Below, piece after piece: positions 16,928 to 54,061 of a stretch of DNA of 64,000 bases. The DNA is taken from assembly GCA_007376405.1 (NCBI GenBank), contig VMGD01000006.1, forward strand, positions 19,337 to 83,336. Direction: 5' to 3'. How positions within the stretch are numbered: position 1 is the first letter of the stretch; the number at the start of each line of letters is the position of its first letter. Under the pieces are notes generated by a model that was not told the origin of the DNA, did no database searches, and was given only the letters and a program-made list of their open reading frames with translations. The stretch comes from Microgenomates group bacterium Gr01-1014_7. Its GTDB lineage: Bacteria > Patescibacteriota > Microgenomatia > Daviesbacterales > UBA10151. Both the position numbers and the translations under genes were made by a program.

Positions 16928-17035
16928 CCGGTTCCTACGTCGCCAATGTCGGTTACTTCAACGCTGACAACGGTCCGAACGTCAACAACTGGAATGCCCG
17001 CAAGAGCAATCCTAATCTTGCTGCCGCCCGCTGGG
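16928..17035 (+). repeat. DGR1 template repeat (TR)
   Basis: Non-coding copy of the VR. In the VR frame it reads GSYVANVGYFNADNGPNVNNWNARKSNPNLAAARW, with many AAC/AAT codons. Carries A wherever the VR differs. Confidence 0.85.
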
Positions 17036-17059
17036 TAGTTTCTAGAAATTTTAAAAGAT

Positions 17060-17420
17060 TCAGGGTAAGTTTTGCTTGGTGGAACGAATCCATCCGCCAA
17101 GCATCTTGCCTATTTCTTGCAAGTATCCTTGCAGCTCCAAATAATGCTTATCTTTTAAAGCAAGGCTATCTTTGGCAAGTCTTAAAAGAATTTTTAATAA
17201 ATCTAGTTTTATGCTTATTTGTTGTAAGGTAGATATTTTGTTATTTGAGGTTGGAATTGATAAAAGCAGTTCAAAGATTTCCAGGGTTAAATTATCCAAT
17301 TTTTGACCAAGAGTATACTTTTTAGTTTTAGGAAATTTAATGATTAAATAACTTAGGTTTTGATAAAAATCGTAGAGTTTAGCAAAAATCGGGATGTCAA
17401 GGCTAGAGACAGGCAGTGTG
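17060..17420 (-). CDS. avd: DGR1 accessory variability determinant (Avd-like four-helix-bundle protein)
   Basis: Frame open from about 17420 to 17060. Reads ...LDIPIFAKLYDFYQNLSYLIIKFPKTKKYTLGQKLDNLTLEIFELLL...YLELQGYLQEIGKMLGGWIRS, matching the four-helix-bundle/Avd consensus. No canonical in-frame ATG; the ORF caller started it at a TTG (17299). Confidence 0.6.
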
Positions 17421-17428
17421 TGTGTGTG
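17416..17428. repeat. (GT)6.5 dinucleotide microsatellite in the avd1-RT1 divergent intergenic region
   Basis: gtgtgtgtgtgtg lies directly downstream (minus sense) of an out-of-frame ATG (17432-17430). One extra unit would put that ATG in frame with avd1. Confidence 0.9.
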
Positions 17429-17442
17429 GCATTCTTTAAAAG

Positions 17443-18426: not shown

Positions 18427-18436
18427 CGAGTTGTTA

Positions 18437-18511
18437 ACTTTCTAAAATTTGGGCGGCGAATTTTTCCAGACTCTTTATTTTTTCCGCAGAGAATTTTTTG
18501 GCTTTAAAGTA
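18437..18511 (-). pseudogene. duplicated 3' fragment of sbcD (last 25 codons)
   Basis: Minus-strand translation YFKAKKFSAEKIKSLEKFAAQILES* vs intact SbcD C-terminus YFKAKKFSAEKIKTLEKFAAQLLES* (19119-19196). About 85% nt identity over ~75 bp. Confidence 0.65.
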
Positions 18512-18874
18512 TTAATTACCTGTTTTTCCGGTGATAATAGTGAGTTTTCCAATAAGAGATTTTCTGGTAGATTTATTTAGAAGAGATGTTAATTTTTTAT
18601 CTATCTGTTCAAGTGTTAAATTTGCAGACACTCCAATAACTCCGGTTGATTTACTTGTCGGGGCTAATGTTTTAAAATCTTTAATATTGAGAGTGACTAG
18701 GATTCTACTTTCCTTACCCGCGAACTGATAGACTTTAGGGTCTGGTAAGGCGCTTTGCCCATAATCACCGGTAATATGTTTAACATCAAATCGGCTATTT
18801 GTAATAGGCAAGCTTTGACGAAAGTAAAATCCCTCATCCAGCAATAGCTTGTGTTTGTAAAATCTCCGAGTCAT
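18512..18874 (-). CDS. DUF5615 family PIN-like protein (second copy)
   Basis: KLLLDEGFYF N-terminus and TLNIKDFK motif, similar to the 2328-2672 gene. Confidence 0.6.
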   Translation of the reverse strand: MTRRFYKHKLLLDEGFYFRQSLPITNSRFDVKHITGDYGQSALPDPKVYQFAGKESRILVTLNIKDFKTLAPTSKSTGVIGVSANLTLEQIDKKLTSLLNKSTRKSLIGKLTIITGKTGN

Positions 18875-19103
18875 TCCTAGATTGGCTTAAATCCTCAACC
18901 AATTCACTAATTGCGCCCTCAATAGTTTTTAGCGGTACCCAAGGATAGCCATCATGAATTGATTCAACAGTACAGCCTTCTTTTAAACGTTGAACTATAA
19001 CAGCAATTGGTATCCTGGTGCCTGCAATGCATGGTGCGCCACCCATAATATCTGATTTAGATAATATATAAGCTTTTTTCTTCATATGTTTATTATACCA
19101 CAT
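18834..19103 (-). CDS. DUF433 domain protein (second copy)
   Basis: ILSKSDIMGGAPCIAGTRIPIAVIVQRLKEGCTVESI matches DUF433. Overlaps the downstream DUF5615 gene by 41 nt. Confidence 0.6.
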   Translation of the reverse strand: MWYNKHMKKKAYILSKSDIMGGAPCIAGTRIPIAVIVQRLKEGCTVESIHDGYPWVPLKTIEGAISELVEDLSQSRNDSEILQTQAIAG

Positions 19104-19118
19104 TAATAGTATGACAAA

Positions 19119-20267
19119 CTAAGATTCAAGCAGTTGGGCAGCGAATTTTTCCAAAGTTTTTATTTTTTCAGCAGAGAATTTTTTTGCTTTAAAGTAACTC
19201 TGCAACGCCTCAACAGGAGTTAATCTTTCAACTTCTTCTTGTCCGTCTATTTTTAACCTTTCTTTTCTTTCAACATTCCGGGAAATTCCGGCAATGTAAT
19301 GAGCAGAGGATAGAGCCTTTTTAATTTTATCCATCTCCAAATTTTGCTCTAAATCAGCAGGGATATTTAAAGTTAGTCTAACGACTTTATCAGCTACATC
19401 ATGTTTTGAAATTTCATCTAAAATAGTTTGGGTAGGATTGGAATCGTTAGCTTTTAAGTCAATATCAATAGACAAAAACCTACGACAATTAGTAGGGATA
19501 AATTGGAAGTTAGTGGTCTTTGCAATTTCCACCAGACATATTCCTTTTTCTTCTTTTTCTTCGCCAAAATCAATCCTATGAGGGGAGCCGGCGTAAACTA
19601 CTAAAGGATCCTTGGATAAAACCTGGTGTTTGTGAATATGACCCAAAGCCACATAAGATAATCTTCTGTCTTGAAGTAAAGGTAGGGGGACTGTGACATC
19701 ATTTCCAATTGCCATACCTTTTTCTGAACCATAACTTGCGCCTTCTACCTCGCAATGCGATAAAAATATGGCAGGGGATTTTGGTGTAATTTTGTCATAT
19801 AAAGATTTTAATTTATCTCCAACGGTTTTGTATTCGTCTTTGTGTAACCAGGGTAAAGTTATAACTTGCAGAGTGCCTGATTTAGTGGGTATTTTTAAAA
19901 GTTCGGGTTTTCGGGAAACCCAGACATTATCTATTTCCAGGGCAGAGTAAATATCCAGAGTATTGGCTTTGCCCTCTGCATTGGGAGTGTCATGATTGCC
20001 TACAACTAAAACCACGGGAATTCCGGCTTTGGCAATTTTTTTAATTCTCTCTCCAAACCCCCTTTGCTGGGTTGGATTTGGATCACGGGTTTTGTAAGCA
20101 TCTCCTGCAAAAACCACAGCATCAACTTGATTTTCTATTGCCGTATCAACAATAAAATCAAAGGTTTTTAGAAAATCCAAAAGGCGGGTAGATAAACCTG
20201 TTTGCGGATCCAGTTTGGCATAATTTTCCATGCCAATATGAATATCCGCAAAGTGTAATAATTTCAT
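19119..20267 (-). CDS. sbcD: exonuclease SbcCD subunit D (Mre11-like metallophosphoesterase)
   Basis: MKLLHFADIHIG, GDAYKTRDP, GNHD and GHIHKHQ phosphoesterase motifs. Start placed at MKLL (20267); the 15 upstream in-frame codons are encoded by a GC-rich hairpin and are probably 5' UTR. Confidence 0.9.
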   Translation of the reverse strand: MKLLHFADIHIGMENYAKLDPQTGLSTRLLDFLKTFDFIVDTAIENQVDAVVFAGDAYKTRDPNPTQQRGFGERIKKIAKAGIPVVLVVGNHDTPNAEGKANTLDIYSALEIDNVWVSRKPELLKIPTKSGTLQVITLPWLHKDEYKTVGDKLKSLYDKITPKSPAIFLSHCEVEGASYGSEKGMAIGNDVTVPLPLLQDRRLSYVALGHIHKHQVLSKDPLVVYAGSPHRIDFGEEKEEKGICLVEIAKTTNFQFIPTNCRRFLSIDIDLKANDSNPTQTILDEISKHDVADKVVRLTLNIPADLEQNLEMDKIKKALSSAHYIAGISRNVERKERLKIDGQEEVERLTPVEALQSYFKAKKFSAEKIKTLEKFAAQLLES

Positions 20268-20377
20268 GTTTGGATTACGTCCCCCGAAGGCGGGAGGCAA
20301 GGTTCTGCACACGCGAAGTATAATATATCACATACTGAAGCGTGAAGCAGGTCCTTATATCATGGTAAAATGGGCAA

Positions 20378-21490
20378 ATGTTTGAACACAGAATAAAAAA
20401 ACTTAAAAATCAATTAGCAGAAGAAAATCTGGACGCGGTTTTGGTTTCTTCAGTTTCAAATATTACATACTTTACAGGGTATTCCAATTTTTCCAAAGAT
20501 GAACGGGAGGCGTATTTAATAATTAGCAAAGATTTTCAGTATGTTATTACTGACGGACGCTACACGGAAGCGGTAAAAAAACAAATTTCCCATTTTAGGG
20601 TTGCCGAAAGAAGTTTGTTTAAGGATTTAAAAATTGTAAGACTTGGGGTAGAAGAAAATAGTCTTACAGTTTCAGAACATAAGTTTTTCAAGAAGTATTT
20701 TAAAAAAATAAAAAAATTTAATGTTAGTAGAAGCATTAAAAGCGGAGATGAAATTAAGAAAATAGAAGATGCTGCAAAATTGGGGGACCGTGCTTTTGAA
20801 TTTGTTTTGAAAAAGATTAAAGAAGGCATTAGTGAGAAAGAATTAGCTTTTGAAATAGAACTTTATATTAAGAAAAACGGAGGAGATTTATCTTTCCCAA
20901 TAATTGTGGCTTTTGGTAAAAATTCATCAGTACCTCATCATCAGACTGGAGAAACTAAATTAGGTCCTTCGACTCCCTTCGGTCGCTCAGGACGAGGAGG
21001 ACAAATAATCCTCCTCGATTTCGGAGTAAAAGTTGATGAATATTGTTCCGATATGACCAGAACAGTTTTTTTTGGGAAAGCAACAGAGAAACAAAGAAAA
21101 ATTTATCAAACTGTTTTAGAATCACAAAAAAGGACTGTTGATTTTATTAATGAATCTATTAAAAATGGGAAACAAGTTCAAGCTAAAGATGTAGATAAAG
21201 TGGCAAGGAATTATATTATTTCCCGGGGATTCCCGTCTATACCTCATTCACTGGGGCATGGAGTTGGACTTGAGATTCATGAACATCCTCACTTATCACC
21301 TAAAAGCAAAGAAGAACTCAAAGAGGGAATGGTATTTTCCATAGAGCCGGGGATTTACATCCCGGGATTTGGCTCGCCTCGCTCGACGCGAGTCGAAGCG
21401 GGAGGAGTAAGAATTGAAGATTTATTTGTTTATCAAAGACAGGGCTTGAAACAAACTACCAATTCCCCAAAAGAAATAATTGAGATATAA
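20378..21490 (+). CDS. M24 family Xaa-Pro aminopeptidase-like peptidase
   Basis: LDFGVKVDEYCSDMTRT, HSLGHGVGLEIHE and EPGIYIPG...GGVRIED motifs. Carries two GC-rich in-frame insertions (20963-21000, 21371-21405). Confidence 0.85.
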   Translation: MFEHRIKKLKNQLAEENLDAVLVSSVSNITYFTGYSNFSKDEREAYLIISKDFQYVITDGRYTEAVKKQISHFRVAERSLFKDLKIVRLGVEENSLTVSEHKFFKKYFKKIKKFNVSRSIKSGDEIKKIEDAAKLGDRAFEFVLKKIKEGISEKELAFEIELYIKKNGGDLSFPIIVAFGKNSSVPHHQTGETKLGPSTPFGRSGRGGQIILLDFGVKVDEYCSDMTRTVFFGKATEKQRKIYQTVLESQKRTVDFINESIKNGKQVQAKDVDKVARNYIISRGFPSIPHSLGHGVGLEIHEHPHLSPKSKEELKEGMVFSIEPGIYIPGFGSPRSTRVEAGGVRIEDLFVYQRQGLKQTTNSPKEIIEI

Positions 21491-38552: not shown

Positions 38553-40330
38553 ATCTTATGTATATTCGAAATTTTTCAATTATTGCCCATGTTGATCATG
38601 GCAAATCTACATTAGCTGATCGGTTCTTGGAAATTACCGGTACTGTTCCGAAGGATAAATTACAACCCCAAATTTTAGATTCTTTGGCTCTGGAGCGTGA
38701 ACGCGGAATTACTATCAAGCTTGCCCCCGTGCGCCTCAACTATACCCTAAACGCTATACCCTACACCCTAAATCTAATAGATACTCCGGGGCATGTAGAT
38801 TTTTCATACGAAGTTTCCCGGGCGCTGAATGCAGTTGAAGGGGCAATACTGCTGGTCGATGCTACTCAGGGAATTCAAGCTCAAACTTTATCACATGGTC
38901 TGTCAGCGCTGGAACAAAATTTGGTACTTATTCCGGTTATAAATAAAATAGACTTACCCAACGCAAATATTGAAAAAACAAAAAAAGAATTAGTGGACAG
39001 TTTTGGATTTAAAGAGAGTGAGGTGCTGCTGGTATCAGCTAAAACAGGAGAAGGAGTTGAGGAAATATTAAAAGCGGTGATTGAACGAATTCAGCCGCCC
39101 AAGGTGGATCCCGCACCATCCGGTGCGGGACTGCGAGCCCTTCGGGCTCTTGTATTTGATTCTTTCTTTGATTCATATAAAGGAGTGGTGGCTCAAATAA
39201 GAGTGATTGATGGGGAGGTAGGAAAGATTGGTTCAGAGATAAAATTTCTGGGTACTAAAGCAGAAGGTCAGGTATTGGAAGTGGGTTATTTTTCTCCGCA
39301 TTTAACACCTGCTGATCGGTTAGGAGCAGGAGAAATAGGCTATATTGCAACCGGTATTAAACAGCCTGATTTAGTTAGAGTCGGTGACACGATTAGCACC
39401 GATTCAGGAGCCCAGCCGCTGCCGGGATACAAACAAGTTAAACCTATGGTTTATGTGGGGTTTTATCCGCTGAATCAGGATGAGTATTATGATATTAAAG
39501 ATGCGCTGGATAGATTTAGATTAAACGACCCGGCATTTACTTTTGAGCCGGAGCATTCAACAGCCTTGGGCACAGGATTTCGGTGCGGGTTTTTAGGATT
39601 ACTGCATGCAGAGGTGGTGCAGGAGCGACTGTCGCAAGAGTTTGAAGCAAACTTAATTGCCACCACTCCATCTGTTGAATATTTGGTTGACGGAAAAGAA
39701 ATGACTAATCCCTCCGAACTGGACCCTTCACATACTGTAATAGAGGAACCGTGGGTTTCTTTAAAAATCTTTGTCCCTCAGACCTATATCGGATCAGTGA
39801 TGGAGTTGGTGCAGGATAAAAGGGGAGTATTTAAAAATATGCAGCATTTTGGAATACAGGTAGAACTAACCTATGAGATGCCTTTATCAGAGATGATCAC
39901 TGATTTTTATGACAAACTAAAAAGTGTTTCTTCCGGATTTGCATCGCTTGACTGGGAATTTTTAGATTTTAGAGAAGTGGATGGGGTAAGGGTGGATATT
40001 TTAGTGGGAGGGGAAAAAGTGGATGCACTGTCCACAATAGTGGTTCGCCAAAAAGCAGAATATATTGGCAGAAGAATGGTGGAAAAGTTAAAAGAGGTTT
40101 TGCCCAGGCAAAATTTTGAGGTGGCTTTGCAAGCTGCAATAGGAGGGAAAATTATTGCCAGGGAAACTTTGTCTAGCTTTAGAAAGGATGTTACAGCCAA
40201 ACTTTATGGAGGAGACAGGACCAGAAAAGATAAACTTCTGGAAAAGCAGAAAAAAGGAAAAAAGAAAATGAAAATGATCGGAAAAGTAGAAATTCCCCAG
40301 GAGGCTTTCTTAAGCATTTTAAAAAGCTGA
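38549..40330 (+). CDS. lepA: elongation factor 4 (LepA)
   Basis: IRNFSIIAHVDHGKSTL, DTPGHVDF, NKID, and the unique LepA C-terminal domain. Confidence 0.95.
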   Translation: MNLMYIRNFSIIAHVDHGKSTLADRFLEITGTVPKDKLQPQILDSLALERERGITIKLAPVRLNYTLNAIPYTLNLIDTPGHVDFSYEVSRALNAVEGAILLVDATQGIQAQTLSHGLSALEQNLVLIPVINKIDLPNANIEKTKKELVDSFGFKESEVLLVSAKTGEGVEEILKAVIERIQPPKVDPAPSGAGLRALRALVFDSFFDSYKGVVAQIRVIDGEVGKIGSEIKFLGTKAEGQVLEVGYFSPHLTPADRLGAGEIGYIATGIKQPDLVRVGDTISTDSGAQPLPGYKQVKPMVYVGFYPLNQDEYYDIKDALDRFRLNDPAFTFEPEHSTALGTGFRCGFLGLLHAEVVQERLSQEFEANLIATTPSVEYLVDGKEMTNPSELDPSHTVIEEPWVSLKIFVPQTYIGSVMELVQDKRGVFKNMQHFGIQVELTYEMPLSEMITDFYDKLKSVSSGFASLDWEFLDFREVDGVRVDILVGGEKVDALSTIVVRQKAEYIGRRMVEKLKEVLPRQNFEVALQAAIGGKIIARETLSSFRKDVTAKLYGGDRTRKDKLLEKQKKGKKKMKMIGKVEIPQEAFLSILKS

Positions 40331-40355
40331 TAAAAGCTGATATAATAAACTTTAA

Positions 40356-41399
40356 GTGAGCAGGGAATTTATGGAAGGATCAGAATCCGGAGAACAATTT
40401 TTACACAGAAAATACAAGGATTTAAATACAGACCCAACTGTAGTTTCTGCAGCCAACCGCCATGCAAGACGCCTGGGTATGGAACCTCCGGAAAAGGATG
40501 ATTACGGAACTCGAATAAAAAATTACCTCGATAGGTTAAGCGAGATCGTTAACCCTCCGAAAGTTGCAGGAGAACCGGATACTGAACAAGAGCGTAAAAG
40601 AGACAGAAATCTGTCGATGCTCAAAACTGCCCTTTATAATAATTTTGTTATAAAGCCGGGGAATATTCCTGAAAGCTACTTTGATGCAATAAAAAGGAAG
40701 CATCGTGAAGAAGGCTACGGTGATATTGAAATTCCGGATGATTACCGCCGTGAACTTTCCGAAACTATAATTGCCGATCAAAGAAACTCTCTAGACAACT
40801 GGGTTGATTATTTAGTCTCTGATGATGCGAAGTATCCAAATTGGCTAAAATATTTGGCTTTCCGCAGTGTGCTGCGTATGGGTAGGTATGATAAGCAAAG
40901 GAAAACTTTTACTGAAAGGACAAGTGGCGGCGGCACTGTCAGTCCTTTCCCCGAATTAAACCGTGAAGCCCTTTCAATTGTTCTTGGAGACATGGAGAAG
41001 AAAAATCTAGCTACTAAAGAATCACAAAGCAGCAGGTTGGATTTAGATTTTACATCACGTTTTGATATATCCCTGGAAGCAAAACAAAAATACATGCAAT
41101 CCCTAGACAACGGGAATTTTGCTCAAGCTTATGCCCTGGCGATAGAAGAGTTTAAACCGATAGCAGAAGAATTACTACAAATTACCCAAGGGGAATGGGT
41201 GAGATATCCAAGGGGTTCTGACCATCTGCCTCTGGTGAGGTCAATCTCCAATTATGGAACCGGCTGGTGTTTACGGGGAGAGGCAACTGCCCAAAGGTAC
41301 CTTACACGCGATAAAAATGATCTTTTTGTGTATTACTCTCTGGATTTAAATGGTAAACCAACTGTCCCTAGGGTATGTAATCGGAAATCTCAATTTTGA
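40356..41399 (+). CDS. hypothetical protein immediately upstream of the DGR2 target
   Basis: 347-aa ORF with no recognisable family. Confidence 0.45.
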   Translation: MSREFMEGSESGEQFLHRKYKDLNTDPTVVSAANRHARRLGMEPPEKDDYGTRIKNYLDRLSEIVNPPKVAGEPDTEQERKRDRNLSMLKTALYNNFVIKPGNIPESYFDAIKRKHREEGYGDIEIPDDYRRELSETIIADQRNSLDNWVDYLVSDDAKYPNWLKYLAFRSVLRMGRYDKQRKTFTERTSGGGTVSPFPELNREALSIVLGDMEKKNLATKESQSSRLDLDFTSRFDISLEAKQKYMQSLDNGNFAQAYALAIEEFKPIAEELLQITQGEWVRYPRGSDHLPLVRSISNYGTGWCLRGEATAQRYLTRDKNDLFVYYSLDLNGKPTVPRVCNRKSQF

Positions 41400-41608
41400 T
41401 ACTTTTAGGAAGTCTCAACTTTGAGAATTAAGCTGTAATAACTCGTCATTCTGGGGAACGAAGTGACACCAGAAATCAGATTGCTGAGGTTAGAGGTGTT
41501 GCCAAAGATGAACACCTTGATTCTTATATAGGTGAAGTTGTAGATGGTAAACTCTCTGAACCGGAATTTGAGAAAGAAGGCAGAGCCTGGAAGAAAAAGA
41601 GTCAGGAT

Positions 41609-42574
41609 ATGAAAAAACTAACTGAAATTGAGCAAAAAAGTAAATCAGGCCTTAAATTGTCACAGGATGAGCTGATCTTTTTATATGAAATAGATTCATC
41701 AATTGAGGGATTTGGATACGGCGATGATCCAAGAGTAAAGGAGCTGCGTTTTCAGAGAAAACCGGAAGAAGATATGCTAATTATTTTTGGTTCCGAGCCG
41801 GACCAGATTGCCGGATCAGCCGGGGGAATCACCGCAAATACCAGAGCATATGTTGGCCCACTGGAAAAAGGTATTTTTGACAAATTTGAACAATTTGGAA
41901 TAGAGCATATTTATACCTCTTTCCCTGAAGGAAAAATAAGAAGGGAAACTGTTGAAATTGGGGGAACAGACTTTAAGCAGATAGCTCAAGAATTAGAGGA
42001 TAAACTTAATATAATAGATACCCTAACTTGGGAGAAAACAGGAGAGATTCTTAAACAGGTTGAGGGCGGATCAGTTCAAATTAGTGCTGAGACTACTCAA
42101 TTTTTAAGGCAACTATTTGAAAGGCAGATCAATGTTTCAGGATATGCTCTAGATATGCTTAAAAATTCGGAATTCACCACCAGTCCCACACCTATAAACA
42201 TAGATACAGTTAGACTAAAAATTTCTGCACTGGACCTTAAGGGTACACCCACTACAGATCAAGTATATGCCAGAGCTAACGAACTAGGACTTGATCTTTG
42301 TCCAGCAGAAGTAGGTCCCCACAAAAGATTTAAAGATACTAATGAACCAATGGGAGATTGGGAATATATTGCTATGAAGCAAATGACTGACCGCGGTGGC
42401 CATCTGGATGTCTTCGTGCTCGGTCGTGATGGCCGTGGTTTGTGGTTGGCTGGCCGTTGGGCGGATCCTGACCATGGGTGGCCTCCCGAGGATGAGATTG
42501 TTTTTCGTCTCCGCAAGTCTGAAACTCAACCACTTAAACCCTCTGGATTCTTTTCCAGATTTTTGAGCCGTTGA
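41609..42574 (+). CDS. DGR2 target (variable) protein; C-terminal CLec-like VR
   Basis: 321 aa. The C-terminal TDRGGHLDVFVLGRDGRGLWLAGRWADPDHGWPPEDEIVFRLRK is the VR. Its frame is open upstream to 41432 without another start codon. Confidence 0.8.
   Translation: MKKLTEIEQKSKSGLKLSQDELIFLYEIDSSIEGFGYGDDPRVKELRFQRKPEEDMLIIFGSEPDQIAGSAGGITANTRAYVGPLEKGIFDKFEQFGIEHIYTSFPEGKIRRETVEIGGTDFKQIAQELEDKLNIIDTLTWEKTGEILKQVEGGSVQISAETTQFLRQLFERQINVSGYALDMLKNSEFTTSPTPINIDTVRLKISALDLKGTPTTDQVYARANELGLDLCPAEVGPHKRFKDTNEPMGDWEYIAMKQMTDRGGHLDVFVLGRDGRGLWLAGRWADPDHGWPPEDEIVFRLRKSETQPLKPSGFFSRFLSR
42386..42516 (+). repeat. DGR2 variable repeat (VR)
   Basis: 131 bp. Differs from the TR (42847-42977) at 20 positions, all with A in the TR. 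Confidence 0.9.
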
Positions 42575-42846
42575 TACTTTGAAACTTTGTTTGAAATTTT
42601 TATATAATTATTACGGATAGGTTGTTTTGAACGGCTACGGCTTTTTGAGGCCTTTCCGGCAAATGTAAATTGAGAACAAGTAAGGTTACGGCTTTGCCTG
42701 GAGTGATCTACATTCTGTCATTAAAAAAAGAAATACTTGGTGTGGTGTGCTTTTGCGGATTCATCCGCGGATAAAATACAGCCTGGCGTCTTCCGCCAGA
42801 TAGTGGATTACACAGGCAGTGAGGTTAGTAGGGCACATCATACATT

Positions 42847-42977
42847 ACTGACCGCGATGGCCATCTGAATGTCTTCAAGCTCAATCGTGATGGCAATGGT
42901 TTGTGGTTGAATGACAATTGGGCGAATCCTGACAATAGGTGGAATCCCGAGAATGAGATTGTTTTTCGTCTCCGAAA
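42847..42977 (+). repeat. DGR2 template repeat (TR)
   Basis: In the VR frame it reads TDRDGHLNVFKLNRDGNGLWLNDNWANPDNRWNPENEIVFRLRN, with eight AAT codons. Confidence 0.9.
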
Positions 42978-43334
42978 CTATTTCTTTCCGCGTCTAACCG
43001 GCGCGGTTTTTTGTAGACCTAAACTTCTCTTCCAGCCCCAAAGCATCTTTCCGATCTCATCCAGCTTAACTGCAATATCCCCATATTGTTTATGGGAAAT
43101 AAGTTTAGCTTCCCAAGCAGTAGAAATTAGGAATTTAATAATATCTACTATAAAAATACAATCGGATAATTTATCTGCCTTTTTCTCTTTTTCGGTAAAA
43201 TATGCAGTATATGATAATTCTAAAAGGTCGAGGAATTTATTTTCTATCCTTGAGCCTGTTGTAAACCGCCCGGACCGGGGAATATGAGGAGAAATATTCA
43301 TCCAAATCAAATATCCTTCCTTGATCCGGTTCAA
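42978..43334 (-). CDS. avd: DGR2 accessory variability determinant (Avd-like four-helix-bundle protein)
   Basis: 118 aa; C-terminal half FLISTAWEAKLISHKQYGDIAVKLDEIGKMLWGWKRS matches the four-helix-bundle/Avd family. Its stop codon abuts the TR end. Antisense to the TR and RT, as in DGR1. Confidence 0.7.
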   Translation of the reverse strand: MNRIKEGYLIWMNISPHIPRSGRFTTGSRIENKFLDLLELSYTAYFTEKEKKADKLSDCIFIVDIIKFLISTAWEAKLISHKQYGDIAVKLDEIGKMLWGWKRSLGLQKTAPVRRGKK

Positions 43335-43351
43335 TATGGAAGATTTTTCAT

Positions 43352-43370
43352 GAGAGAGAGAGAGAGAGAG
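43352..43370. repeat. (GA)9.5 dinucleotide microsatellite at the 5' end of DGR2 RT
   Basis: tgagagagagagagagagag directly follows an ATG at 43350. The RT reading frame runs through the tract but is +1 relative to that ATG. Confidence 0.9.
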
Positions 43371-43495
43371 TTAGGGAGCTTTTCCATGCCAGATATAATT
43401 CTATCATTTCACTGGAAAATTTACTGGAATCATGGCATGAATTTTTAAGAGGTAAGAAAAACAGAAAAGATATTGCAACTTTTTCAATCCGGTTT

Positions 43496-44362
43496 ATGGA
43501 TAATGTCCTTATTTTGAACGAGGAACTCTTAAAAAAGACATATCAGCACGGAGGTTACTATGCTTTTAAAATAAACGACCCGAAACCAAGGAATATCCAC
43601 AAGGCCAATGTAAGGGATCGGATTGTCCACCATGCCATCTTTAGAATTCTTTACCCTTACTTTGAGAAAAAATTTATCTTTGATTCATACTCCTGCAGAT
43701 TAAATAAAGGCACCCATAAATCTATTTACAGATTCAGGGATTTATCAAGGAAAGGGTCTGTAAATAATACAAAACCCCTTTGGTTATTAAAAGGAGACAT
43801 CAGGAAGTTTTTTGCCAATATTGACCACGATATTTTAAAAAATATTTTACAAAGATATATTATTGATGAAGAAATTTTGTGGTTGATGGGAGAAATTATT
43901 GATAGTTTCCGGCCTGGTCTGCCACTTGGCAATGTAACCAGTCAGCTTTTTATTAATATTTATTTAAATGAATTTGACCAGTTTGTTAAACGGGATTTGA
44001 AAGTTCACAGTTATATCCGATATTGTGATGATTTTGTGATTATTCACACGGATAAAGTTTATTTAGAAGGACTTATCCCTAAAATATCACAGTTTTTAGA
44101 AGATGAATTAAAACTTTCACTTCATCCGGATAAAGTTTTTATTAAAAGACTCTCTTTGGGAGTGGATTTTCTGGGATGGGTACATTTTTCCCATCATCGG
44201 GTTTTAAGAACTGCTACCAAAAAGAGGATGTTCAAAAGGCTCAAGGGTAATCAACCTAACGAGACGCTAGCCTCTTATTTGGGCTTACTGAAACATGGCG
44301 ATACCTATAAACTTGTAAAAAAATTAAGGATGATAACTACGGAAAATGATTTAAATCATTGA
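43496..44362 (+). CDS. DGR2 reverse transcriptase (intact ORF from an internal ATG; conserved N-terminal region continues upstream to about 43325)
   Basis: RPGLPLGNVTSQLFINIYL (DGR IGxxxSQ motif) and IRYCDDFVII (YxDD). Upstream in-frame codons ...FHARYNSIISLENLLESWHEFLRGKKNRK align with the N-terminus of RT1 (THKSYSQLTSVENLFQAWSEFKVGKRKRK) but lack an in-frame ATG in the reference sequence. Confidence 0.8.
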   Translation: MDNVLILNEELLKKTYQHGGYYAFKINDPKPRNIHKANVRDRIVHHAIFRILYPYFEKKFIFDSYSCRLNKGTHKSIYRFRDLSRKGSVNNTKPLWLLKGDIRKFFANIDHDILKNILQRYIIDEEILWLMGEIIDSFRPGLPLGNVTSQLFINIYLNEFDQFVKRDLKVHSYIRYCDDFVIIHTDKVYLEGLIPKISQFLEDELKLSLHPDKVFIKRLSLGVDFLGWVHFSHHRVLRTATKKRMFKRLKGNQPNETLASYLGLLKHGDTYKLVKKLRMITTENDLNH

Positions 44363-44370
44363 AACAGAGG

Positions 44371-44631
44371 TTAGCGATAAGTTTGGGTAGTACGGCGTTT
44401 GATATCAACAATAATAACCTCTTTATTTTCTTCATCAATAAAATAAAAAACTCGATAATCACCGACTCTGATTCTATATAATGGAGGAATCCTGGAGGCA
44501 ATTTTATCAAATCCTCTGGGTTTTGGATCATTTTTGAGCTGAACTATTTTTTTGGCAATTAGTAACTGATAATCTTTTGGAAATTTTTTTAAAGCTTTCT
44601 GTGCCCGAGGTGAGTAAACGAGGTTATGCAT
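44371..44631 (-). CDS. RelE/ParE family toxin
   Basis: 86 aa; KKFPKDYQLLIAKKIVQLKNDPKPRGFDKI...YRIRVGDYRVFYFIDEENKEVIIVDIKRR fits the RelE/ParE fold pattern. Confidence 0.75.
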   Translation of the reverse strand: MHNLVYSPRAQKALKKFPKDYQLLIAKKIVQLKNDPKPRGFDKIASRIPPLYRIRVGDYRVFYFIDEENKEVIIVDIKRRTTQTYR

Positions 44632-44929
44632 CTAATTTAAGCTTCTTCATCAACTTTTCATGAGAAATACCCTTGCCTTTTTTAACAACGTCGAGTTCTT
44701 TATATAAAGAATCAATATAACCGGGTTGAACCGTATCTTCTTGAATATCTACCAGCTCTAAATAGGTATTTAAATCCAGTAAAATAGCTTTAGGTTCGCC
44801 ATGTTGGGTAATAATAACTTGATTTCCTTTGCGAGGCATGTTATCTAGAATACCGCTTAAATCCCGACGCAGATCATCCGCACCGATAAAGTTCTTTTTA
44901 AGCATGTCGGACAGAGATATTTGTTGCAT
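44624..44929 (-). CDS. Phd/YefM family antitoxin
   Basis: LSGILDNMPRKGNQVIITQHGEPKAILLDLNTYLEL is a typical Phd/YefM N-terminal domain. Overlaps the toxin start. Confidence 0.7.
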   Translation of the reverse strand: MQQISLSDMLKKNFIGADDLRRDLSGILDNMPRKGNQVIITQHGEPKAILLDLNTYLELVDIQEDTVQPGYIDSLYKELDVVKKGKGISHEKLMKKLKLDA

Positions 44930-45025
44930 GAGGATATTCTTACATATTCCTTAGGACTTGTCAATACTTGATTTTATTTTTACATTATGAGTATGCTGGA
45001 GGTAGACAAAGAAGGGGGTGAGAGA

Positions 45026-45229
45026 ATGAAAATTTTACATATGGCATCTTATGCACTCCTTTGGGTTGGAGGTTTAAACTGGGGTTTGGTTGGCCTATTT
45101 AATATGAACCTGGTTGAGAATATTTTGGGTATGGGTATTGCAAAATTGGTTTATATCCTGGTAGGTGTAGCAGCTGTTTACACTGTTGCAACTCACATGG
45201 GTGAATGTAAAGTATGCGGCAAATCTTAA
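45026..45229 (+). CDS. DUF378 family small membrane protein
   Basis: MKILHMASYALLWVGGLNWGLVGLFNMNLV matches DUF378. Confidence 0.6.
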   Translation: MKILHMASYALLWVGGLNWGLVGLFNMNLVENILGMGIAKLVYILVGVAAVYTVATHMGECKVCGKS

Positions 45230-46143
45230 AACCTTCCAAACTGGAGATTGGGGATACGATTGGAATAGTCGCTTCTTCTTTGCCGGTTTTGCCATCCTTT
45301 AGGGAAAATTATGAAAGGGGTAAGAAGGTGATTGCCGATTTAGGATTTAAGATTAAAGAAGGTAAGACAATTGGCAAAACCCGCTGGTGGGCAGCGGGGA
45401 CACCGGAGGAAGTGGCCCAGGATATAAACAGTATGTTTGGCGATAAAAATATCAGAGCCATTATAGCCCAAGATGGAGGATATTCTGCTATTTCAGTTAT
45501 AGAGTATTTAGATTATGATCTGATCTCCAAAAATCCAAAGCCTTTCATGGGATTATCTGACATGACAATTTATCATCTGGCAATTCTGGCAAAAACCGGA
45601 ATGGTGGGATTTCATATGGATTATCTCTCATCTTTTACCGGTCAGTTTTTCTTACGGTTTTTAACCGGCAGTAACCCACCCGGGAAAATAGAGCCGCTGT
45701 CGGATTGGGAGGAATGGAAAAAGGGAGAAGCAAAAGGGCATTTGGTAGGTGGTCTGCTGGAGCGGATATCACTGCTGGCAGGGACAAAATATTTTCCGCC
45801 ACTTGAATACTTTGACGGGGCAATTCTTTTTTGGGAACATATTGGAGGGGACTTAAGTGATATTTACCAGTATCTTTTTAAGTTAAAAAATATGGGGATT
45901 CTGGAAAGAATTAACGGAATGATGATAGGTAAAATAAAATATCTAAAAAAAATGAGTGAAGAAATAGTTGAGCCTTCAGTTAGAGAAATAGTTCTGGAAA
46001 TCTTAAAGGATTATAAATTCCCCATAATGGCCAATATGGATTTTGGGCATTTTACAGTTAATATCCCCATGCCCATAGGGATAAAAGTTTCCTTTGATAC
46101 CTCCAAAAAGGAACTAAATTTCCTGGAAGGAGCGGTAATCTGA
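45214..46143 (+). CDS. LD-carboxypeptidase (S66 peptidase, LdcA/MccF-like)
   Basis: GDTIGIVASS, GGYSA nucleophile region, C-terminal MDFGH motif of family S66. Confidence 0.8.
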   Translation: MRQILKPSKLEIGDTIGIVASSLPVLPSFRENYERGKKVIADLGFKIKEGKTIGKTRWWAAGTPEEVAQDINSMFGDKNIRAIIAQDGGYSAISVIEYLDYDLISKNPKPFMGLSDMTIYHLAILAKTGMVGFHMDYLSSFTGQFFLRFLTGSNPPGKIEPLSDWEEWKKGEAKGHLVGGLLERISLLAGTKYFPPLEYFDGAILFWEHIGGDLSDIYQYLFKLKNMGILERINGMMIGKIKYLKKMSEEIVEPSVREIVLEILKDYKFPIMANMDFGHFTVNIPMPIGIKVSFDTSKKELNFLEGAVI

Positions 46144-46147
46144 TTCT

Positions 46148-46175
46148 TGACTTTTGTACAAATTTGTACTAATAT
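46148..46175 (+). promoter_or_regulatory. sigma70-like promoter TTGACT-17-TAATAT with embedded palindrome TGTACAAATTTGTAC (putative antitoxin operator)
   Basis: Read from sequence. The -10 ends 8 nt before the ATG at 46184, implying a leaderless or near-leaderless transcript. Confidence 0.45.
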
Positions 46176-46183
46176 GTACAAAT

Positions 46184-46492
46184 ATGACACAAGTAATGAA
46201 AGCGTCAGTTGTAAGGCAGCAATGGAGCCAACTGCTTAATCAGGTATTTACCGACCAAACAAGGATAGTGGTTGAAAAAAGCGGTATTCCTGTAGCAGCT
46301 GTTATTTCAGCTAAAGAGTTAGAGCGGCTTACTAGAATAGATGAACAAAGACAAGCACGTTTTAAGGTGCTGGATGAGATACGAGGAGCTTTTGAGAATA
46401 TACCTGTTAAGGAGCTCGAGAAAGAAGTAAACAAAGCGTTAGCGCAAGTCCGGGCAGAAAATCGGGCTAAAAGAGCATTAAATAAAAAGTGA
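46184..46492 (+). CDS. Phd/YefM-type antitoxin (VapB-like)
   Basis: MTQVMKASVVRQQWSQLLNQVFTDQTRIVVEKSGIPVAAVISAKELERL is an antitoxin fold; overlaps the downstream PIN gene by 4 nt. Confidence 0.6.
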   Translation: MTQVMKASVVRQQWSQLLNQVFTDQTRIVVEKSGIPVAAVISAKELERLTRIDEQRQARFKVLDEIRGAFENIPVKELEKEVNKALAQVRAENRAKRALNKK

Positions 46493-46914
46493 TTTCAGCA
46501 GTTTTAGATACTAATATTTTAGCCTCGGGTACTGTTACTGCCTTAACCCCTCCGGGACAGATACTTGATAGATGGTGTGACGGACAGTTTGAGCTAATTG
46601 TATCAGAGCATATTATTGAGGAATTGGAAAGCACCCTCAAAAAGCCATATTTTCAAAAACATCTTAGTACAAAGGCTAAAATAGCATATATGGAACTTTT
46701 ACAAACTGAAACAACCGTTACTCCAATAACTGTAAATGTTAAAGGGGTGGCTACCCACCCTGAAGATGATTTGGTGCTTGCAACAGCAATTTCCGCTAAA
46801 GCTGATTATCTGGTTACCGGGGATGGGCCGTTAATTAGAAAAGTTGGCAAAAAATATAAAGGCGTCACATTAATCAGTCCAACAGATTTTCTTGAAATAC
46901 TTAAAGAGCTGTAA
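46489..46914 (+). CDS. PIN domain toxin (VapC-like, TIGR00305 type)
   Basis: MISAVLDTNILASG..., conserved acidic residues ...EELES... and DYLVTGD. Confidence 0.75.
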   Translation: MISAVLDTNILASGTVTALTPPGQILDRWCDGQFELIVSEHIIEELESTLKKPYFQKHLSTKAKIAYMELLQTETTVTPITVNVKGVATHPEDDLVLATAISAKADYLVTGDGPLIRKVGKKYKGVTLISPTDFLEILKEL

Positions 46915-46968
46915 TTTAATTCTTGACGCTTTATAAAAAATCTGCTATTTTAAGCCAAGCCTATATTT

Positions 46969-47850
46969 ATGATTCAAAGGTTAATAAATCAAGCACGAGG
47001 TAGGGAAAGAGAACCTATTGCAACCTCATTACAACCAATAACTCCCCAGGCAGTAGAACTATGGAAAGCTATAGCCTCTAGAAGAAAACCTAATCGTGAA
47101 GAAACAGCAATTTATAAATTTGCTTTTGCACGCGAAGGAATAAAACCGGAAACTCCCAATCAGCATGCCTTCCTTGATTGTCTAAGGCGATATAATTATC
47201 CTTCAGTCGCAGGCGGGAATCCTTTTGAAGTTACCTTGTCTGTCAATCCTGATCCTGCCGACGTTTCATTATTAGTCAGTATTTGGTCACCTACCCCGCC
47301 AAAACTTGATCATCCTGTTCTTATTTTCCAAGAGTTTCCAGCAAGAGATGAATATAGACCGTTACAATTCCCATACAATATGATTATTACTGGAGAAGGG
47401 GATTCTATTTATACTGAAGCTTGCAGGTATGAACTTATGGGTTTTGATACAGATCAGAAAAAATTAATATGGCAGGAATCAGACGATAGAGAAGATTGGT
47501 TAGTTCGTCCTATTGGTGATGTTGAATTCCGAAGAGAGTTTGCAAGTGAGGCTTTAGCACTTCTTACAAAAGTCGCATTAACAGCTGATCCTGTTCGCGC
47601 AGCCGGGAAAGACAGTAGAGTGAGAACTGTTTTAGAGGATGTAAGGAAAGAAGGTATAACCAGATGGAGATCAAAAGCTTCATTTTGGAGCAGAATCCTT
47701 TCCGAACCAATTTTTTTCCAGCCCTGGTCAGTTGCAGCAGACAACTTTAAGGTTATGTGGTATAGAATGGATGTGGCAGATAAGGCTGGCGCTGCCGAAT
47801 ACATGAGAAAATATTATCCTCATAGTCTGCAACCAAGTCCAGTTGGATAA
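46969..47850 (+). CDS. hypothetical protein
   Basis: 293-aa ORF, no recognisable family. Confidence 0.45.
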   Translation: MIQRLINQARGREREPIATSLQPITPQAVELWKAIASRRKPNREETAIYKFAFAREGIKPETPNQHAFLDCLRRYNYPSVAGGNPFEVTLSVNPDPADVSLLVSIWSPTPPKLDHPVLIFQEFPARDEYRPLQFPYNMIITGEGDSIYTEACRYELMGFDTDQKKLIWQESDDREDWLVRPIGDVEFRREFASEALALLTKVALTADPVRAAGKDSRVRTVLEDVRKEGITRWRSKASFWSRILSEPIFFQPWSVAADNFKVMWYRMDVADKAGAAEYMRKYYPHSLQPSPVG

Positions 47851-51168: not shown

Positions 51169-53097
51169 ATGGCTAAGATTGTGGGGATTGATTTAGGAAC
51201 AACAAATTCAGTAGTGGCAGTCATGGAAGGTGGGAAGCCCAAAGTGATCCACTCTTCGGAGGGGGAAAATATTATTCCCTCTGTGGTTAATCCTGGAAAA
51301 AATATTGTGGGAAGAGTGGCCAAGCGGCAATCGATTGTTAACCCCAAAGAAACTATTTTTTCCATAAAGAGGCTAATGGGCCGGAAATTTAAAGACTCTG
51401 AGGTGCAAAGAGATATTAAGTGGCTTCCTTATGAGATTAAAGAGGGTAAAAACGGCATGGCAGTTGTGGAAGTAGAGGGCCATGAATATACTCCCCAGGA
51501 AATTTCCGCCCAGATTTTGCAAAAAATTAAAGCTGATGCCGAGTCCTATTTAGGGGAAAAAGTAACAGATGCTGTAATTACAGTTCCTGCTTACTTTGAT
51601 GATGCCCAGCGCCAGGCTACTAAACAGGCAGGGGAAATTGCAGGGCTTAATGTTTCTCGGATTATAAATGAACCAACTGCAGCAGCGCTGGCTTATGGCC
51701 TTGATAAATCCCATGCCCATACTATTGCGGTTTATGACCTGGGTGGTGGTACTTTTGATATTTCCATTCTGGAGCTTGGAGACGGAGTAATTGAAGTAAA
51801 AAGCACTAATGGCGATACTCACTTAGGAGGAGATGATTTTGATCAGATAATTTTAGATTTCTTGGCAGAAGAATTTAAAAAAACAGAAGGAATTGATTTA
51901 AAAGGAGACAGGCAGGCCTTGCAGAGACTGCGAGATGCAGCCGAGAAAGCCAAGGTTGAACTCTCATCTACTCAGGAAGCTGCAATCTCCATTCCCTTTG
52001 TCACTGCGAATGCTAGTGGTCCAAAGCATTTGGAAATGAAGTTAAGTAGGGCCAAGCTGGAGGCAATGGTTAAGCCTTTAATTGATAAAACCTTTGATGC
52101 TGTAAAAGCAGCCTTAAAAGATGCCAAGCTGGAAGCTTCTAAAATTGATGAGATAGTTCTGGTTGGAGGGATGACCCGTATGCCTTCTGTTCAAAAGTCG
52201 GTGCAGGACTTTTTTGGGAAAGAGCCACATAAGGGAATCAACCCGGATGAAGTGGTGGCAGTTGGAGCAGCAATCCAGGGAGGGGTGTTGGGCGGGGAAG
52301 TTAAAGACGTATTGCTTTTGGATGTAACCCCCTTAACTTTGGGAATTGAAACTTTGGGGGGTATCCGAACACCCCTGATAAACCGGAATACAACCATTCC
52401 AAGTTCAAAATCGGAAATTTTCTCAACAGCAGCGGATAATCAAACCTCAGTTGAAATAAATGTTTTACAAGGTGAAAGAGAGATGGCAGCTGATAATAAG
52501 TCTTTGGGTAGATTTATTCTGGATGGGATTCCACCTGCACCAAGGGGTGTTCCACAAATTGAAGTTACTTTTGATATTGATGCCAATGGGATTTTAAATG
52601 TTACGGCCCATGATAAAGCTACAGGCAAAAAGCAAAATATTACTATTACAGGCTCAACAGGTTTAAGTAAAGAAGAAGTAGAGAAAATGACTAAAGAGGC
52701 AGAAGCTCATGCGGAGGAAGATAAAAAAAGAAGGGAAGAAGTGGAAATCAGAAATCAGGCAGATACTCTGGTTTTTACAGCAGAAAGAAGTTTAAAAGAC
52801 GGCGGAGACAAAGTCCCGGCTGATGTAAGGACAGATGTTGAGCAAAAATTAAATGATCTTAAAGGCGTTGTCCAAACTGCGTCTCCGGAGGATTTAAAAC
52901 CCAAAATGGAAGCATTGTCTGAAGCGTTGCAAAAAGTTGGGGCTTCTATGTATGAAAAACAGGGTACAGGTGACAGTGGACAGGGTACAGCAGAACAAAC
53001 CCCTGGTGAAGAGCCAAAAACAGAGGACTCGTCCTCCGAAGCCTCGGCGAAGGAGGAGGCTGTTGAAGGGGAAGTGGTGGAAGAAGAAAAGAAATAG
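51169..53097 (+). CDS. dnaK: molecular chaperone DnaK (Hsp70)
   Basis: [30 protein letters not shown] and the C-terminal EEVD-like tail. The stop codon lies in the first unit of a 14-bp tandem repeat. Confidence 0.97.
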
Positions 53098-53166
53098 AAG
53101 AAAAGAAATAGAAGAAAAGAAATAGAAGAAAAGAAATAGAAGAAAAGAAATAGAAGAAAAGAAATA
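53083..53166. repeat. perfect tandem repeat, 6 x 14 bp (gaagaaaagaaata), between dnaK and dnaJ
   Basis: Read from sequence. The first unit contains the dnaK stop; the array ends 10 nt before the dnaJ ATG. Confidence 0.95.
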
Positions 53167-53176
53167 AGAGTAATGA

Positions 53177-54061
53177 ATGGCAAAAAAGGATTACTACGAA
53201 ATATTGGGAGTTTCTAAATCTGCCAGTGAGGCGGAAATTAAATCTGCTTATAGAAAACTTGCCCGAGCGCATCATCCTGATATAGACAAATCCTCCGGAG
53301 CAGCTGAACGATTTAAAGAAGTTTCCGAGGCCTACCAGGTTTTATCTGATCTTCAAAAGAAACAAAGTTATGACCAATTTGGCCATGCTGCATTTGACCC
53401 TTCGGCACGCTCAGGGCAAGCAGGTGGATGGCAAACATATTCCTGGTCAACAGGAGGCGGAAATCCCAACATCCAGTTTGACTTTGGCGGATTTGAAGAC
53501 CCCTTCGAATTATTTGAGCAAATCTTTGGCGGAGCAGGTTTTGGAGAAGCTTTTAGAAGACGCCCAACTTACCAGCTTAATTTAAGTTTTGATGAAGCAA
53601 TAAAAGGAGCGACCAAAGAAGTTGAAATTGAATCAAGGAATTCCCAGGGAAGATTGGAGAGAAAGAGGATGAAAATTAAGGTCCCGCCAGGCGTGGACAA
53701 TGGCACTAAAATGAGGTTTGGGGATTTGGATATTGTTTTTCAGGTCAATAGAAGTCCTGAATTTTTAAGAGAAGGGGCAGATATTTTTTCGGAAATCAAA
53801 GTAACTATCCCCCAGCTGGTATTAGGGGATGTGTTTGAAGTTTTGACTGTGCAGGGAAAAGTTAAGGTAAAGGTGCCGCCAGGCACCCAACCCGGGTCTT
53901 TGGTTAAACTTAAAGGAAAAGGCGCTCCCAGAATAGGCGGAGGTCATGGTGATCACTATGTCAGGGTCAATCTGGAAATCCCTCAAAACCCTTCCAAACA
54001 GGAAAAGCAACTTTATGAAGAGTTATATAATCTCGGTTCCAAGAAAAAAAGCTGGTTTTAA
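53177..54061 (+). CDS. dnaJ: J-domain co-chaperone (DnaJ/CbpA-like, no zinc-finger domain)
   Basis: [32 protein letters not shown] domain, G/F-rich linker, C-terminal substrate-binding domains. No CxxCxGxG repeats. Confidence 0.8.

Follow-up and report, generated by a model that had tools for sequence, protein, structure and literature searches.

The question raised by this locus is why two genes of a diversity-generating retroelement (DGR), those for its Avd protein and its reverse transcriptase (RT), share at their overlapping 5' ends a dinucleotide repeat that leaves both of them out of frame with the ATG codons beyond it. The element, referred to here as DGR2, is one of two DGRs found in a stretch of 64,000 nucleotides of Microgenomates group bacterium Gr01-1014_7 (contig VMGD01000006.1, positions 19,337 to 83,336); this whole 64-kb stretch is called the window, and positions are those of the window. 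The best reading, which we consider quite probable, is that the repeat acts as a phase-variation switch and that DGR2 is a phase-variable DGR. This reading is drawn from the reading frames and from the tract lengths of related sequences. The features on which the argument depends are the following:

42386 to 42516, forward strand: variable region (VR), residues 260-303 of the 321-residue open reading frame (ORF) 41609-42574
42847 to 42977, forward strand: template repeat (TR) of 131 nt, the pair of the VR
42978 to 43387, reverse strand: avd2, with its body at 42978-43334 (118 residues from a TTG codon) and a conserved ATG at 43387-43385, beyond the repeat and out of frame
43352 to 43370: (GA)9G simple-sequence repeat within the 5' ends of both genes, translated as repeated Ser-Leu in avd2 and repeated Arg-Glu in RT2
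43350 to 44362, forward strand: RT2, with the RT frame at 43371-44362; ATG 43350 and ATG 43284, which are in the same frame, lie upstream of the repeat

DGR2 is almost certainly a DGR of the B3 type. B3 denotes the order TR-(avd)-RT with a reverse-strand avd, and it accounts for 90% of the DGR set of the candidate phyla radiation (CPR) (Wu et al. 2018, PMC5758913). The original prediction for this stretch gave the order as target(+), TR(+), avd(−) and RT(+), and the domain matches described below agree with it. It also called this architecture unusual, which does not hold: the layout is the published B3 one, and it is repeated among relatives of the target. Such relatives are encoded at 351 places in the GTDB species representatives, and a TR(+)-avd(−)-RT(+) module is found near about 45 of the 80 examined, either downstream of the target or block-inverted.

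Concerning the repeat pair, VR and TR are aligned at a fixed offset of 461 nt and differ at 20 positions, all of which have A in the TR. This had been claimed from the letters alone and is fully borne out: only 34 of the 131 nt of the TR are adenines, and the probability that all 20 differences fall on A is 7e-15 (hypergeometric). No mismatch at a base other than A occurs across the 131 nt. The VR letters opposite the mismatched adenines are G (12), C (7) and T (1), and 19 of the 20 differences fall on codon position 1 or 2 of ORF 41609-42574. The TR is translated as TDRDGHLNVFKLNRDGNGLWLNDNWANPDNRWNPENEIVFRLRN and contains nine AAT codons and one AAC codon; all nine AAT codons are altered in the VR. 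The eight AAT codons counted earlier are correct for the stretch then quoted but not for the whole TR. The homology stops at 42516 in the VR and 42977 in the TR, and an A-to-C difference is located 3 nt before the end. A repeat finder independently recovers the DGR2 pair (42383-42516 and 42844-42977, 84% identity), as well as the DGR1 pair (16498-16609 and 16928-17039). The same bias is seen in the relatives: over 44 related loci with a recognisable TR, 816 of 852 VR/TR mismatches are opposite a TR adenine.

Both proteins carry the expected domains. The product of avd2 is a bAvd protein (Pfam E=4e-14, 53.4 bits, cut-off 40); its score against the NCBIfam model DivGenRetAVD is 61.3 bits, under the model cut-off of 80. 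We took as DGR-type RTs those with an RT domain and the motif [ILV]GxxxSQ. RT2 matches RVT_1 above the Pfam cut-off (E=3e-20), and its translation contains LGNVTSQ and YCDD. The NCBIfam matches of RT2 include no DGR-specific RT model; they are to other RT classes, all below their cut-offs. RT2 is about 50% identical to the RTs of other loci that bear a TR/VR pair. A hairpin (42542-42559) followed by a T-run is found downstream of VR2, and a search of the relatives for a conserved hairpin after the VR found none kept at that place; according to Wu et al. 2018 (PMC5758913), just 34% of DGRs have GC-rich inverted repeats after the VR.

The frames at the junction of avd2 and RT2 are where DGR2 departs from a simple gene pair. 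The RT2 frame is open from about 43322, and the listed ORF 43496-44362 (288 residues) lacks about 48 N-terminal residues. The frame upstream of ATG 43496 encodes residues that do not vary among the eight RTs compared; since this N-terminal part is so highly conserved, the 288-residue ORF is not the functional product. Between (GA)9G and the conserved His codon of the RT (43385-43387) there is no ATG, GTG or TTG, and ATGs 43350 and 43284 are out of frame with the RT2 body in the window. The avd2 ATG (43387-43385) is antisense to this same His codon, and its frame offset equals that of RT2. When one GA unit is removed or two are added in silico, both genes come into frame: avd2 then encodes 135 residues beginning MEKLPNSLSLSHEKSSILNRIKEGY, and RT2 begins MRERERVRELFHARYNSIISLENLL. 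The bodies of avd2 and RT2 contain no internal stops. Dinucleotide repeats of at least five units occur only twice in the 64-kb window, and both are at avd/RT junctions, those of DGR1 and DGR2. The original prediction noted neither these repeats nor the out-of-frame state of avd1, avd2 and RT2. The frames are best read as an OFF register in the window copy of DGR2; with one unit lost or two gained, both genes would be ON.

The start codons of the two genes are also related by a symmetry. In B3 loci CAT encodes the conserved His of the RT and, read on the other strand, provides the ATG of avd. Avd of the (GA)n clade likewise has a conserved His (in PHIP) encoded by CAT, and in the ON register the complementary strand of this codon supplies the RT frame with an ATG (window 43284-43286); in the 38 DGR2-type junctions, read by eye, the Avd His is always CAT and never CAC. 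The rule that avd always starts at the ATG antisense to the RT His is true for DGR2-type loci but fails in DGR1, where the ATG is at 17432-17430. The near-cognate codon ATC was also considered as an RT start after the repeat; it is present in some loci and absent in others, including the window.

Length alleles of such repeats are found in otherwise identical DNA, and the clearest case is in DGR1 itself, whose relevant features are:

16498 to 16609, forward strand: VR of DGR1
16928 to 17039, forward strand: TR of DGR1, with 17 differences from its VR, 15 of them opposite an adenine of the TR
17416 to 17428: (GT)6 repeat, the counterpart of the DGR2 repeat, read as (AC)n in avd1 and located between the avd1 body and its ATG

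In the window the avd1 ATG (17432-17430) is out of frame with the avd1 body; RT1 starts at 17443. A contig of another assembly of the same organism (L242, ENA ERZ27284378) covers window positions 14445-21426 with only three changes in 6,984 nt. One is a (GT)7 tract in place of (GT)6, and the extra unit gives avd1 a full 124-residue bAvd ORF beginning MPHTHTLPVSSLDIPIF. The remaining two are adjacent VR1 substitutions (16578-16579), both opposite TR1 adenines. Over this stretch the two assemblies therefore differ only in the putative switch and in the apparent product of DGR1's own activity. At the level of predicted frames, DGR1 is polymorphic between ON and OFF, and it appears to be diversifying. 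A comparable series comes from a relative of the DGR2 type: six contigs, each from a different sample, agree fully in the RT (P0201) and in the flanks of the junction, and the GA tract measures 19 nt in one, 21 nt in four and 23 nt in one. Avd and RT ORFs that begin with ATG are present only in the 23-nt allele. Ungapped comparison of flanks in search of close locus pairs found two pairs only.

The repeat is not confined to this genome. We assembled a sample of 115 B3 loci by joining RT-anchored ones from IMG/VR and from JGI metagenomes to the DGR2-type loci. Of the DGR2-type loci, all 38 that have both genes contain a junction repeat, either (GA)n of 10-43 nt or poly-G of 8-14 nt. In the whole sample 93 of 115 loci contain a repeat: poly-G (51), (GA)n (37), (GT)n (3), (CT)n (1) and poly-A (1). 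Among about 70 DGR RT loci that are not B3, no such repeat lies within 200 nt upstream of the RT. The repeat is located inside the 5' coding end of avd, and a tract that is in frame is read as (Ser-Leu)n or (Pro)n directly before the conserved helix 1 of Avd. The repeat-less B3 loci show a head-to-head overlap of the form ATG-N9-15-CAT (for example MTSPISGLSNTSILNRIKDGYL in locus L085).

The presence of the repeat goes together with the state of the frame. Counting any in-frame start and not solely the ATG antisense to the RT His codon, avd is in frame with an upstream ATG in 19 of the 22 repeat-less loci vs 26 of the 93 repeat-bearing ones (Fisher p=6e-7, an optimistic value as B3 loci are phylogenetically non-independent). 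The other repeat-bearing loci have an upstream GTG or TTG only (2/93), a start only after the repeat (22/93) or no canonical start (43/93). The three tract registers are represented by 19, 33 and 28 loci, with no departure from uniform. In the (GA)n clade about two thirds of the RTs lack a start after the repeat, and the register that puts avd in frame also puts the RT in frame with the ATG antisense to the Avd His codon.

Some further observations concern the repeat and the starts around it. In locus L170 a 15-nt tandem repeat, translated as QDRTGQDRTGQD, replaces the mono- or dinucleotide repeat, and avd is out of frame. Predicted RT relatives cluster at about 280-300, 310-320 and 335-360 residues. 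Such length classes would be expected if gene callers placed the start after the repeat, at the ATG beside the His codon or upstream through the repeat, and the RT and Avd sequences deposited for CPR DGRs probably include many with a wrong start. A role of the repeat as a ribosome-binding site or promoter spacer was considered and set aside: (GA)n pairs poorly with the anti-Shine-Dalgarno sequence and poly-G lies up to 21 nt from the RT ATG, although a secondary effect is possible.

Taking these loci together, it is reasonably likely that selection maintains hypermutable repeats (poly-G, (GA)n, (GT)n) at the start of the avd coding sequence as a general ON/OFF switch for the B3 DGRs that dominate in CPR bacteria, that in the (GA)n clade the repeat also belongs to the RT gene, whose 5' end overlaps that of avd, and that such repeats provide heritable, reversible, two-tier bet-hedging. 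The anatomy, frame relations, repeat-length polymorphism and adenine-specific VR changes are observed; we infer that the frame governs whether the proteins are made and the DGR is active, and that switching occurs often and in both directions.

Several points weigh against a phase-variable DGR, and the optimistic p-values given above are one of them. The step from frame to protein is itself deduced from the DNA. A possible start after the repeat is found in 22 of the 65 loci without an in-frame upstream start (GTG or TTG in 20 of these 22), and in the window the TTG of avd2 at 43334 would allow some Avd to be made in any register. RNA-polymerase slippage on the repeat could also restore the frame with no change in the DNA. 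In two further populations the consensus tract is constant over 8-9 samples, so switching is not fast enough for every assembly to differ. One of these two, the P0206 group, has an out-of-frame 21-nt tract in eight samples, with an alternative TTG start present, and in one of its samples the VR is changed at 34 sites, 27 of them opposite a TR adenine; a consensus in the OFF register is thus not the same as inactivity. Such a consensus is compatible with activity either through a minority of ON cells or through leaky expression. Finally, the VR and the repeat of DGR2 are identical in both assemblies, and, with its target interrupted, this copy may be decaying.

This last point leads to the target gene, which is divided in the window into the following parts:

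40356 to 41375, forward strand: 5' part of the DGR2 target gene, ending ...GKPTVPRV; its last 8 nt, CTAGGGTA (41368-41375), are the left copy of a target-site duplication (TSD)
41376 to 41473: left part of an insertion resembling a miniature inverted-repeat transposable element (MITE), about 99 nt of which are present in the window assembly
41474 to 42574, forward strand: 3' part of the target gene, from NQIAEVRG... to the stop

The full target gene spans 40356-42574, and ATG 41609 is internal to it. The product of 41609-42574 had been put forward as the target, but it is only the 3' part of a gene that starts at 40356. In 78 of 78 related loci (tblastn) this gene, including the counterpart of the upstream ORF 40356-41399, is a single uninterrupted ORF; it is interrupted only in the window. 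The relatives are single proteins of about 400-550 residues whose N-terminal part matches this upstream ORF.

In the relatives, 27 nt stand at the place of the window's insertion; the window assembly lacks the right half of the insertion and about 27 nt of the target gene. An independent contig (L241, ENA ERZ27284378) is 100% identical to window 41474-47362 and begins inside the insertion (L241 1-147). Its junction is intact: ...TTAACA is followed by CTAGGGTA and then by GTGATAGTTGTTAATGCAAATAATCAGATTGCT, which encodes RVVIVVNANNQIAEVRG as in the relatives. Merged from both assemblies, the insertion is 207 nt long, is flanked by the 8-bp TSD CTAGGGTA and has a predicted fold of -48 kcal/mol. 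Its terminal inverted repeats are imperfect (about 23 nt, 16 of 23 matching), and an internal palindrome, GTCATTCTGG...CCAGAATGAC, is also present. By its short length, TSD, terminal inverted repeats and strong predicted internal pairing the inserted element is MITE-like. Its core motif occurs once in the 64-kb window, to which the search was limited, so no second copy was found there. The shortened form in the window is due either to collapse during assembly or to a real deletion.

Such an interruption is what would be expected if DGR2 were a decaying, permanently inactive cassette, with a target pseudogenised by the MITE, a frameshifted avd and RT, and an incidental repeat. We hold this to be unlikely. 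It has on its side that the target is interrupted here and in 0 of 78 relatives, that the second assembly confirms the interruption, that avd2 and RT2 are out of frame, and that no difference in VR2 or in the repeat is seen between the assemblies while DGR1 shows both. The sequence of VR2 speaks otherwise: a VR with no non-A mismatch in 131 nt and with nine of nine AAT codons diversified indicates recent homing. Nor have the bodies of avd2 and RT2 acquired internal stops, and being out of frame is the commonest state in intact relatives. The insertion appears partly collapsed in the window, which leaves its status in the population uncertain.

A reading which we find improbable is that of an ordinary B3 DGR, in which the repeat is a tolerated linker or spacer, Avd and RT start at non-canonical or downstream codons, and tract length has no regulatory effect. 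The uniform registers are what would be expected if the frame were irrelevant; the 22 of 65 loci with a start after the repeat, the TTG at 43334 and the large VR change in P0206 despite its out-of-frame consensus fit this as well. Against it stand the 43 of 93 loci without any ATG, GTG or TTG before the conserved Avd helix 1, the conservation of the Avd protein (ASILNRIKEGY) to within two to three codons of the repeat, and the 19 of 22 repeat-less relatives that are in frame with an ATG. Different motifs swap at one site, which argues for selection on mutability and not on sequence. Also, a neutral unstable repeat should vanish from small genomes, and the window has just these two.

Still less probable, in our view, is that the frame is restored at the level of RNA or of the ribosome, by transcriptional slippage on poly-G or (GA)n or by programmed frameshifting, with constitutive low levels of Avd and RT and with the repeat as an attenuator instead of a heritable switch. 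Long homopolymer tracts are RNA-polymerase slippage sites, and both the uniform registers and the VR change in a population with an out-of-frame consensus would be accommodated. We know of no established case in bacteria of RNA polymerase slipping on a dinucleotide repeat, and the alleles that differ by whole units between otherwise identical contigs are changes in DNA. The two mechanisms could also coexist.

The TR appears to form a transcription unit of its own, whose features in addition to the TR are:

42579 to 42608, forward strand: promoter-like site TTGAAA-18-TATAAT (11 of 12 consensus positions), directly after the target stop; candidate promoter of the TR RNA
42609 to 42846, forward strand: leader of the TR RNA, with the conserved blocks ATACTTGGTGTGGTG, GGATAAAATACAG and GGCAGTGAGG in the alignment of 44 loci
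42988 to 43012, forward strand: terminator-like hairpin CCGCG..CGCGG followed by T6, 10 nt after the TR and antisense to the 3' end of avd2

The template RNA is probably a transcript of about 400 nt that ends before the RT gene, as suggested by these consensus matches and by covariation. A hairpin with a T-run is found at the same place after the TR in about 40 relatives; the stem sequences vary and the pairing is kept by compensatory changes. Conservation of the promoter is weakly supported: in 18 of 44 relatives the strongest −35/−10 match precedes the TR by 205-230 nt. The conserved leader may be the scaffold by which RT and Avd recognise the TR RNA. Scanned against Rfam at E<=1, positions 40000-45000, which include the leader, had no match. 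Tandem copies of CTTTGA/CTTTGG with a spacing of 9-11 nt follow the target stop in the window (42575-42600) and in most related loci; the window copies coincide in part with the −35 of the promoter-like site, and such copies may be −35 elements or a regulator binding site.

The extent of this RNA also bears on a last proposal, that the repeat is a cis-acting element of retrohoming (a polypurine primer or a part of the DGR RNA) and not a translational switch: (GA)n and poly-G are purine-only on the RT strand and reminiscent of polypurine tracts, but some loci have (GT)n, (CT)n or poly-A there instead, repeat-less relatives exist and the TR RNA seemingly ends at the terminator-like hairpin about 340 nt upstream of the repeat, so we consider it very improbable indeed.

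A phase-variable DGR would operate as follows. The TR would be carried on a short non-coding RNA made up of the promoter-like site, the leader of about 230 nt, the 131-nt TR and the terminator-like hairpin. RT and Avd would copy this RNA, misincorporating opposite adenines, and the cDNA would replace the VR at the 3' end of the target gene. In this way 14 residues of a C-type-lectin-like domain would be recoded: 13 inside the delimited VR and one at the boundary codon 42515-42517. Gain or loss of units by slipped-strand mispairing would shift the start codons into or out of frame, and Avd, plus RT in the (GA)n clade, would be switched ON and OFF stochastically and reversibly in the style of contingency loci. 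The (GT)n repeat in avd1 would be an analogous switch in DGR1.

Concerning the domain to be recoded, it is likely that the VR sits in a C-type-lectin-like domain, which corresponds to residues ~196-301 of ORF 41609-42574. A lectin-like VR had been predicted from its C-terminal residues, and the structure model upholds this: the predicted fold of the VR-bearing domain matches that of C-type lectins and the formylglycine-generating enzyme (FGE), including the DGR targets TvpA and Mtd, with a predicted local distance difference test score (pLDDT) of 93. The VR covers the predicted strands 266-274, 277-284 and 296-301. A Foldseek search of the target model against the PDB gave only non-significant lectin matches. 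Neither half of the target has a match in Pfam or NCBIfam, and a sequence-profile search of the PDB gave no meaningful match. No fold or function was recognised for the N-terminal ~190 residues of ORF 41609-42574 or for the upstream part of ~340 residues.

The original prediction also took the two DGRs of the window as a sign that a hypervariation system had been duplicated or co-opted. The identity between RT1 and RT2 is about 50% and that between Avd1 and Avd2 about 30%, and the targets of DGR1 and DGR2 have no match to each other at E<1e-5. By these comparisons DGR1 and DGR2 are two separate B3 lineages in one genome and not duplicates. The leader blocks GGATAAAATACAG (then a hairpin) and GGCAGTGAGG recur in the DGR1 leader (16629-16927) despite the unrelated targets; GCGGATAAAATACAG and GGCAGTGAGG are found between VR1 and TR1. 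In a related contig (L040, CAYJED010000004.1, 4160-10164) target, TR and avd are present twice, about 3.4 kb apart and with the same scores, as a tandem cassette duplication or an assembly repeat.

The DGR2 cassette itself is an ordinary member of a published class. It shares with the described CPR B3 DGRs the gene order, the strands and a Microgenomates/Patescibacteria host (Wu et al. 2018, PMC5758913), and Patescibacteria DGRs form their own clade 2, with new C-type-lectin variants predicted among the targets (Roux et al. 2021, PMC8144416). PcfJ-like proteins have been named as a category of CPR DGR targets (Wu et al. 2018, PMC5758913). Some relatives of the DGR2 target likewise have a PcfJ-like domain, but only in a divergent subset. 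Compared with TvpA of Treponema denticola and other C-type-lectin folds of the FGE type, the DGR2 target lacks a sequence-level match in Pfam, NCBIfam and the PDB.

With the DGR of Bordetella phage BPP-1 (mtd-avd-TR-brt), DGR2 has in common adenine-specific homing from the TR to a 3'-terminal VR, the use of Avd and RT, and a TR rich in AAY codons. It differs in several respects: avd follows the TR and is encoded on the opposite strand; a conserved leader precedes the TR, and the terminator-like hairpin comes immediately after it, with no spacer into the RT; the DGR2-type VR is not followed by a conserved hairpin; and the element is chromosomal and cellular, not associated with a phage tail-fibre gene.

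Simple-sequence repeats that switch genes are well known from contingency loci, such as opa of Neisseria with (CTCTT)n, the tetranucleotide repeats of Haemophilus, the poly-G tracts of Campylobacter and the phase-variable mod genes ('phasevarions'). In Haemophilus hifA/hifB a (TA)n repeat stands between two divergent genes. The repeats of B3 DGRs resemble these loci in that they lie near the 5' end of an ORF, their units shift the frame, alleles differing by one unit are found in otherwise identical DNA and the motifs are interchangeable at the site; as in hif, a single repeat serves two divergent genes. They differ in that the (GA)n-clade repeat is coding on both strands for two overlapping genes, and that the hosts are environmental CPR bacteria instead of host-adapted pathogens. 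Also, the genes that would be switched here are the enzymes of another mutator, which would place a random switch over targeted hypermutation.

To our knowledge, DGRs are the only prokaryotic system of targeted protein hypermutation, with hardly any account of the regulation of their activity. In CPR bacteria they are especially frequent, and uncontrolled mutagenesis of the target is costly. If a slippery repeat gates Avd, and here also RT, it would offer a simple heritable means by which most cells are OFF and a minority diversify; a stochastic contingency locus would then decide which cells run targeted hypermutation. It would also account for the many assembled avd and RT genes of CPR bacteria that seem truncated or without start codons, and it would mean that annotation pipelines mis-call both genes, with RT relatives called at about 285, 315 or 350 residues.

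In the literature searched, no paper links DGRs with simple-sequence repeats, phase variation, homopolymeric tracts or slippage, and a prior description for CPR DGRs may exist. Promoters, intergenic regions and dinucleotide repeats are not mentioned by Wu et al. (PMC5758913), nor avd or frameshifts by Roux et al. (PMC8144416). As far as checked, neither start codons that overlap head to head nor frames that depend on the repeat have been described before.

Two minor observations concern the surroundings of the cassette. RT2 is followed directly by two toxin-antitoxin pairs, which by their Pfam labels are a ParE-like protein with PhdYeFM (44371-44929) and a PIN-domain protein with a PhdYeFM-like antitoxin (46154-46914). 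A 14-nt tandem repeat, AGAAGAAAAGAAAT, is present in about eight copies at 53054-53204.

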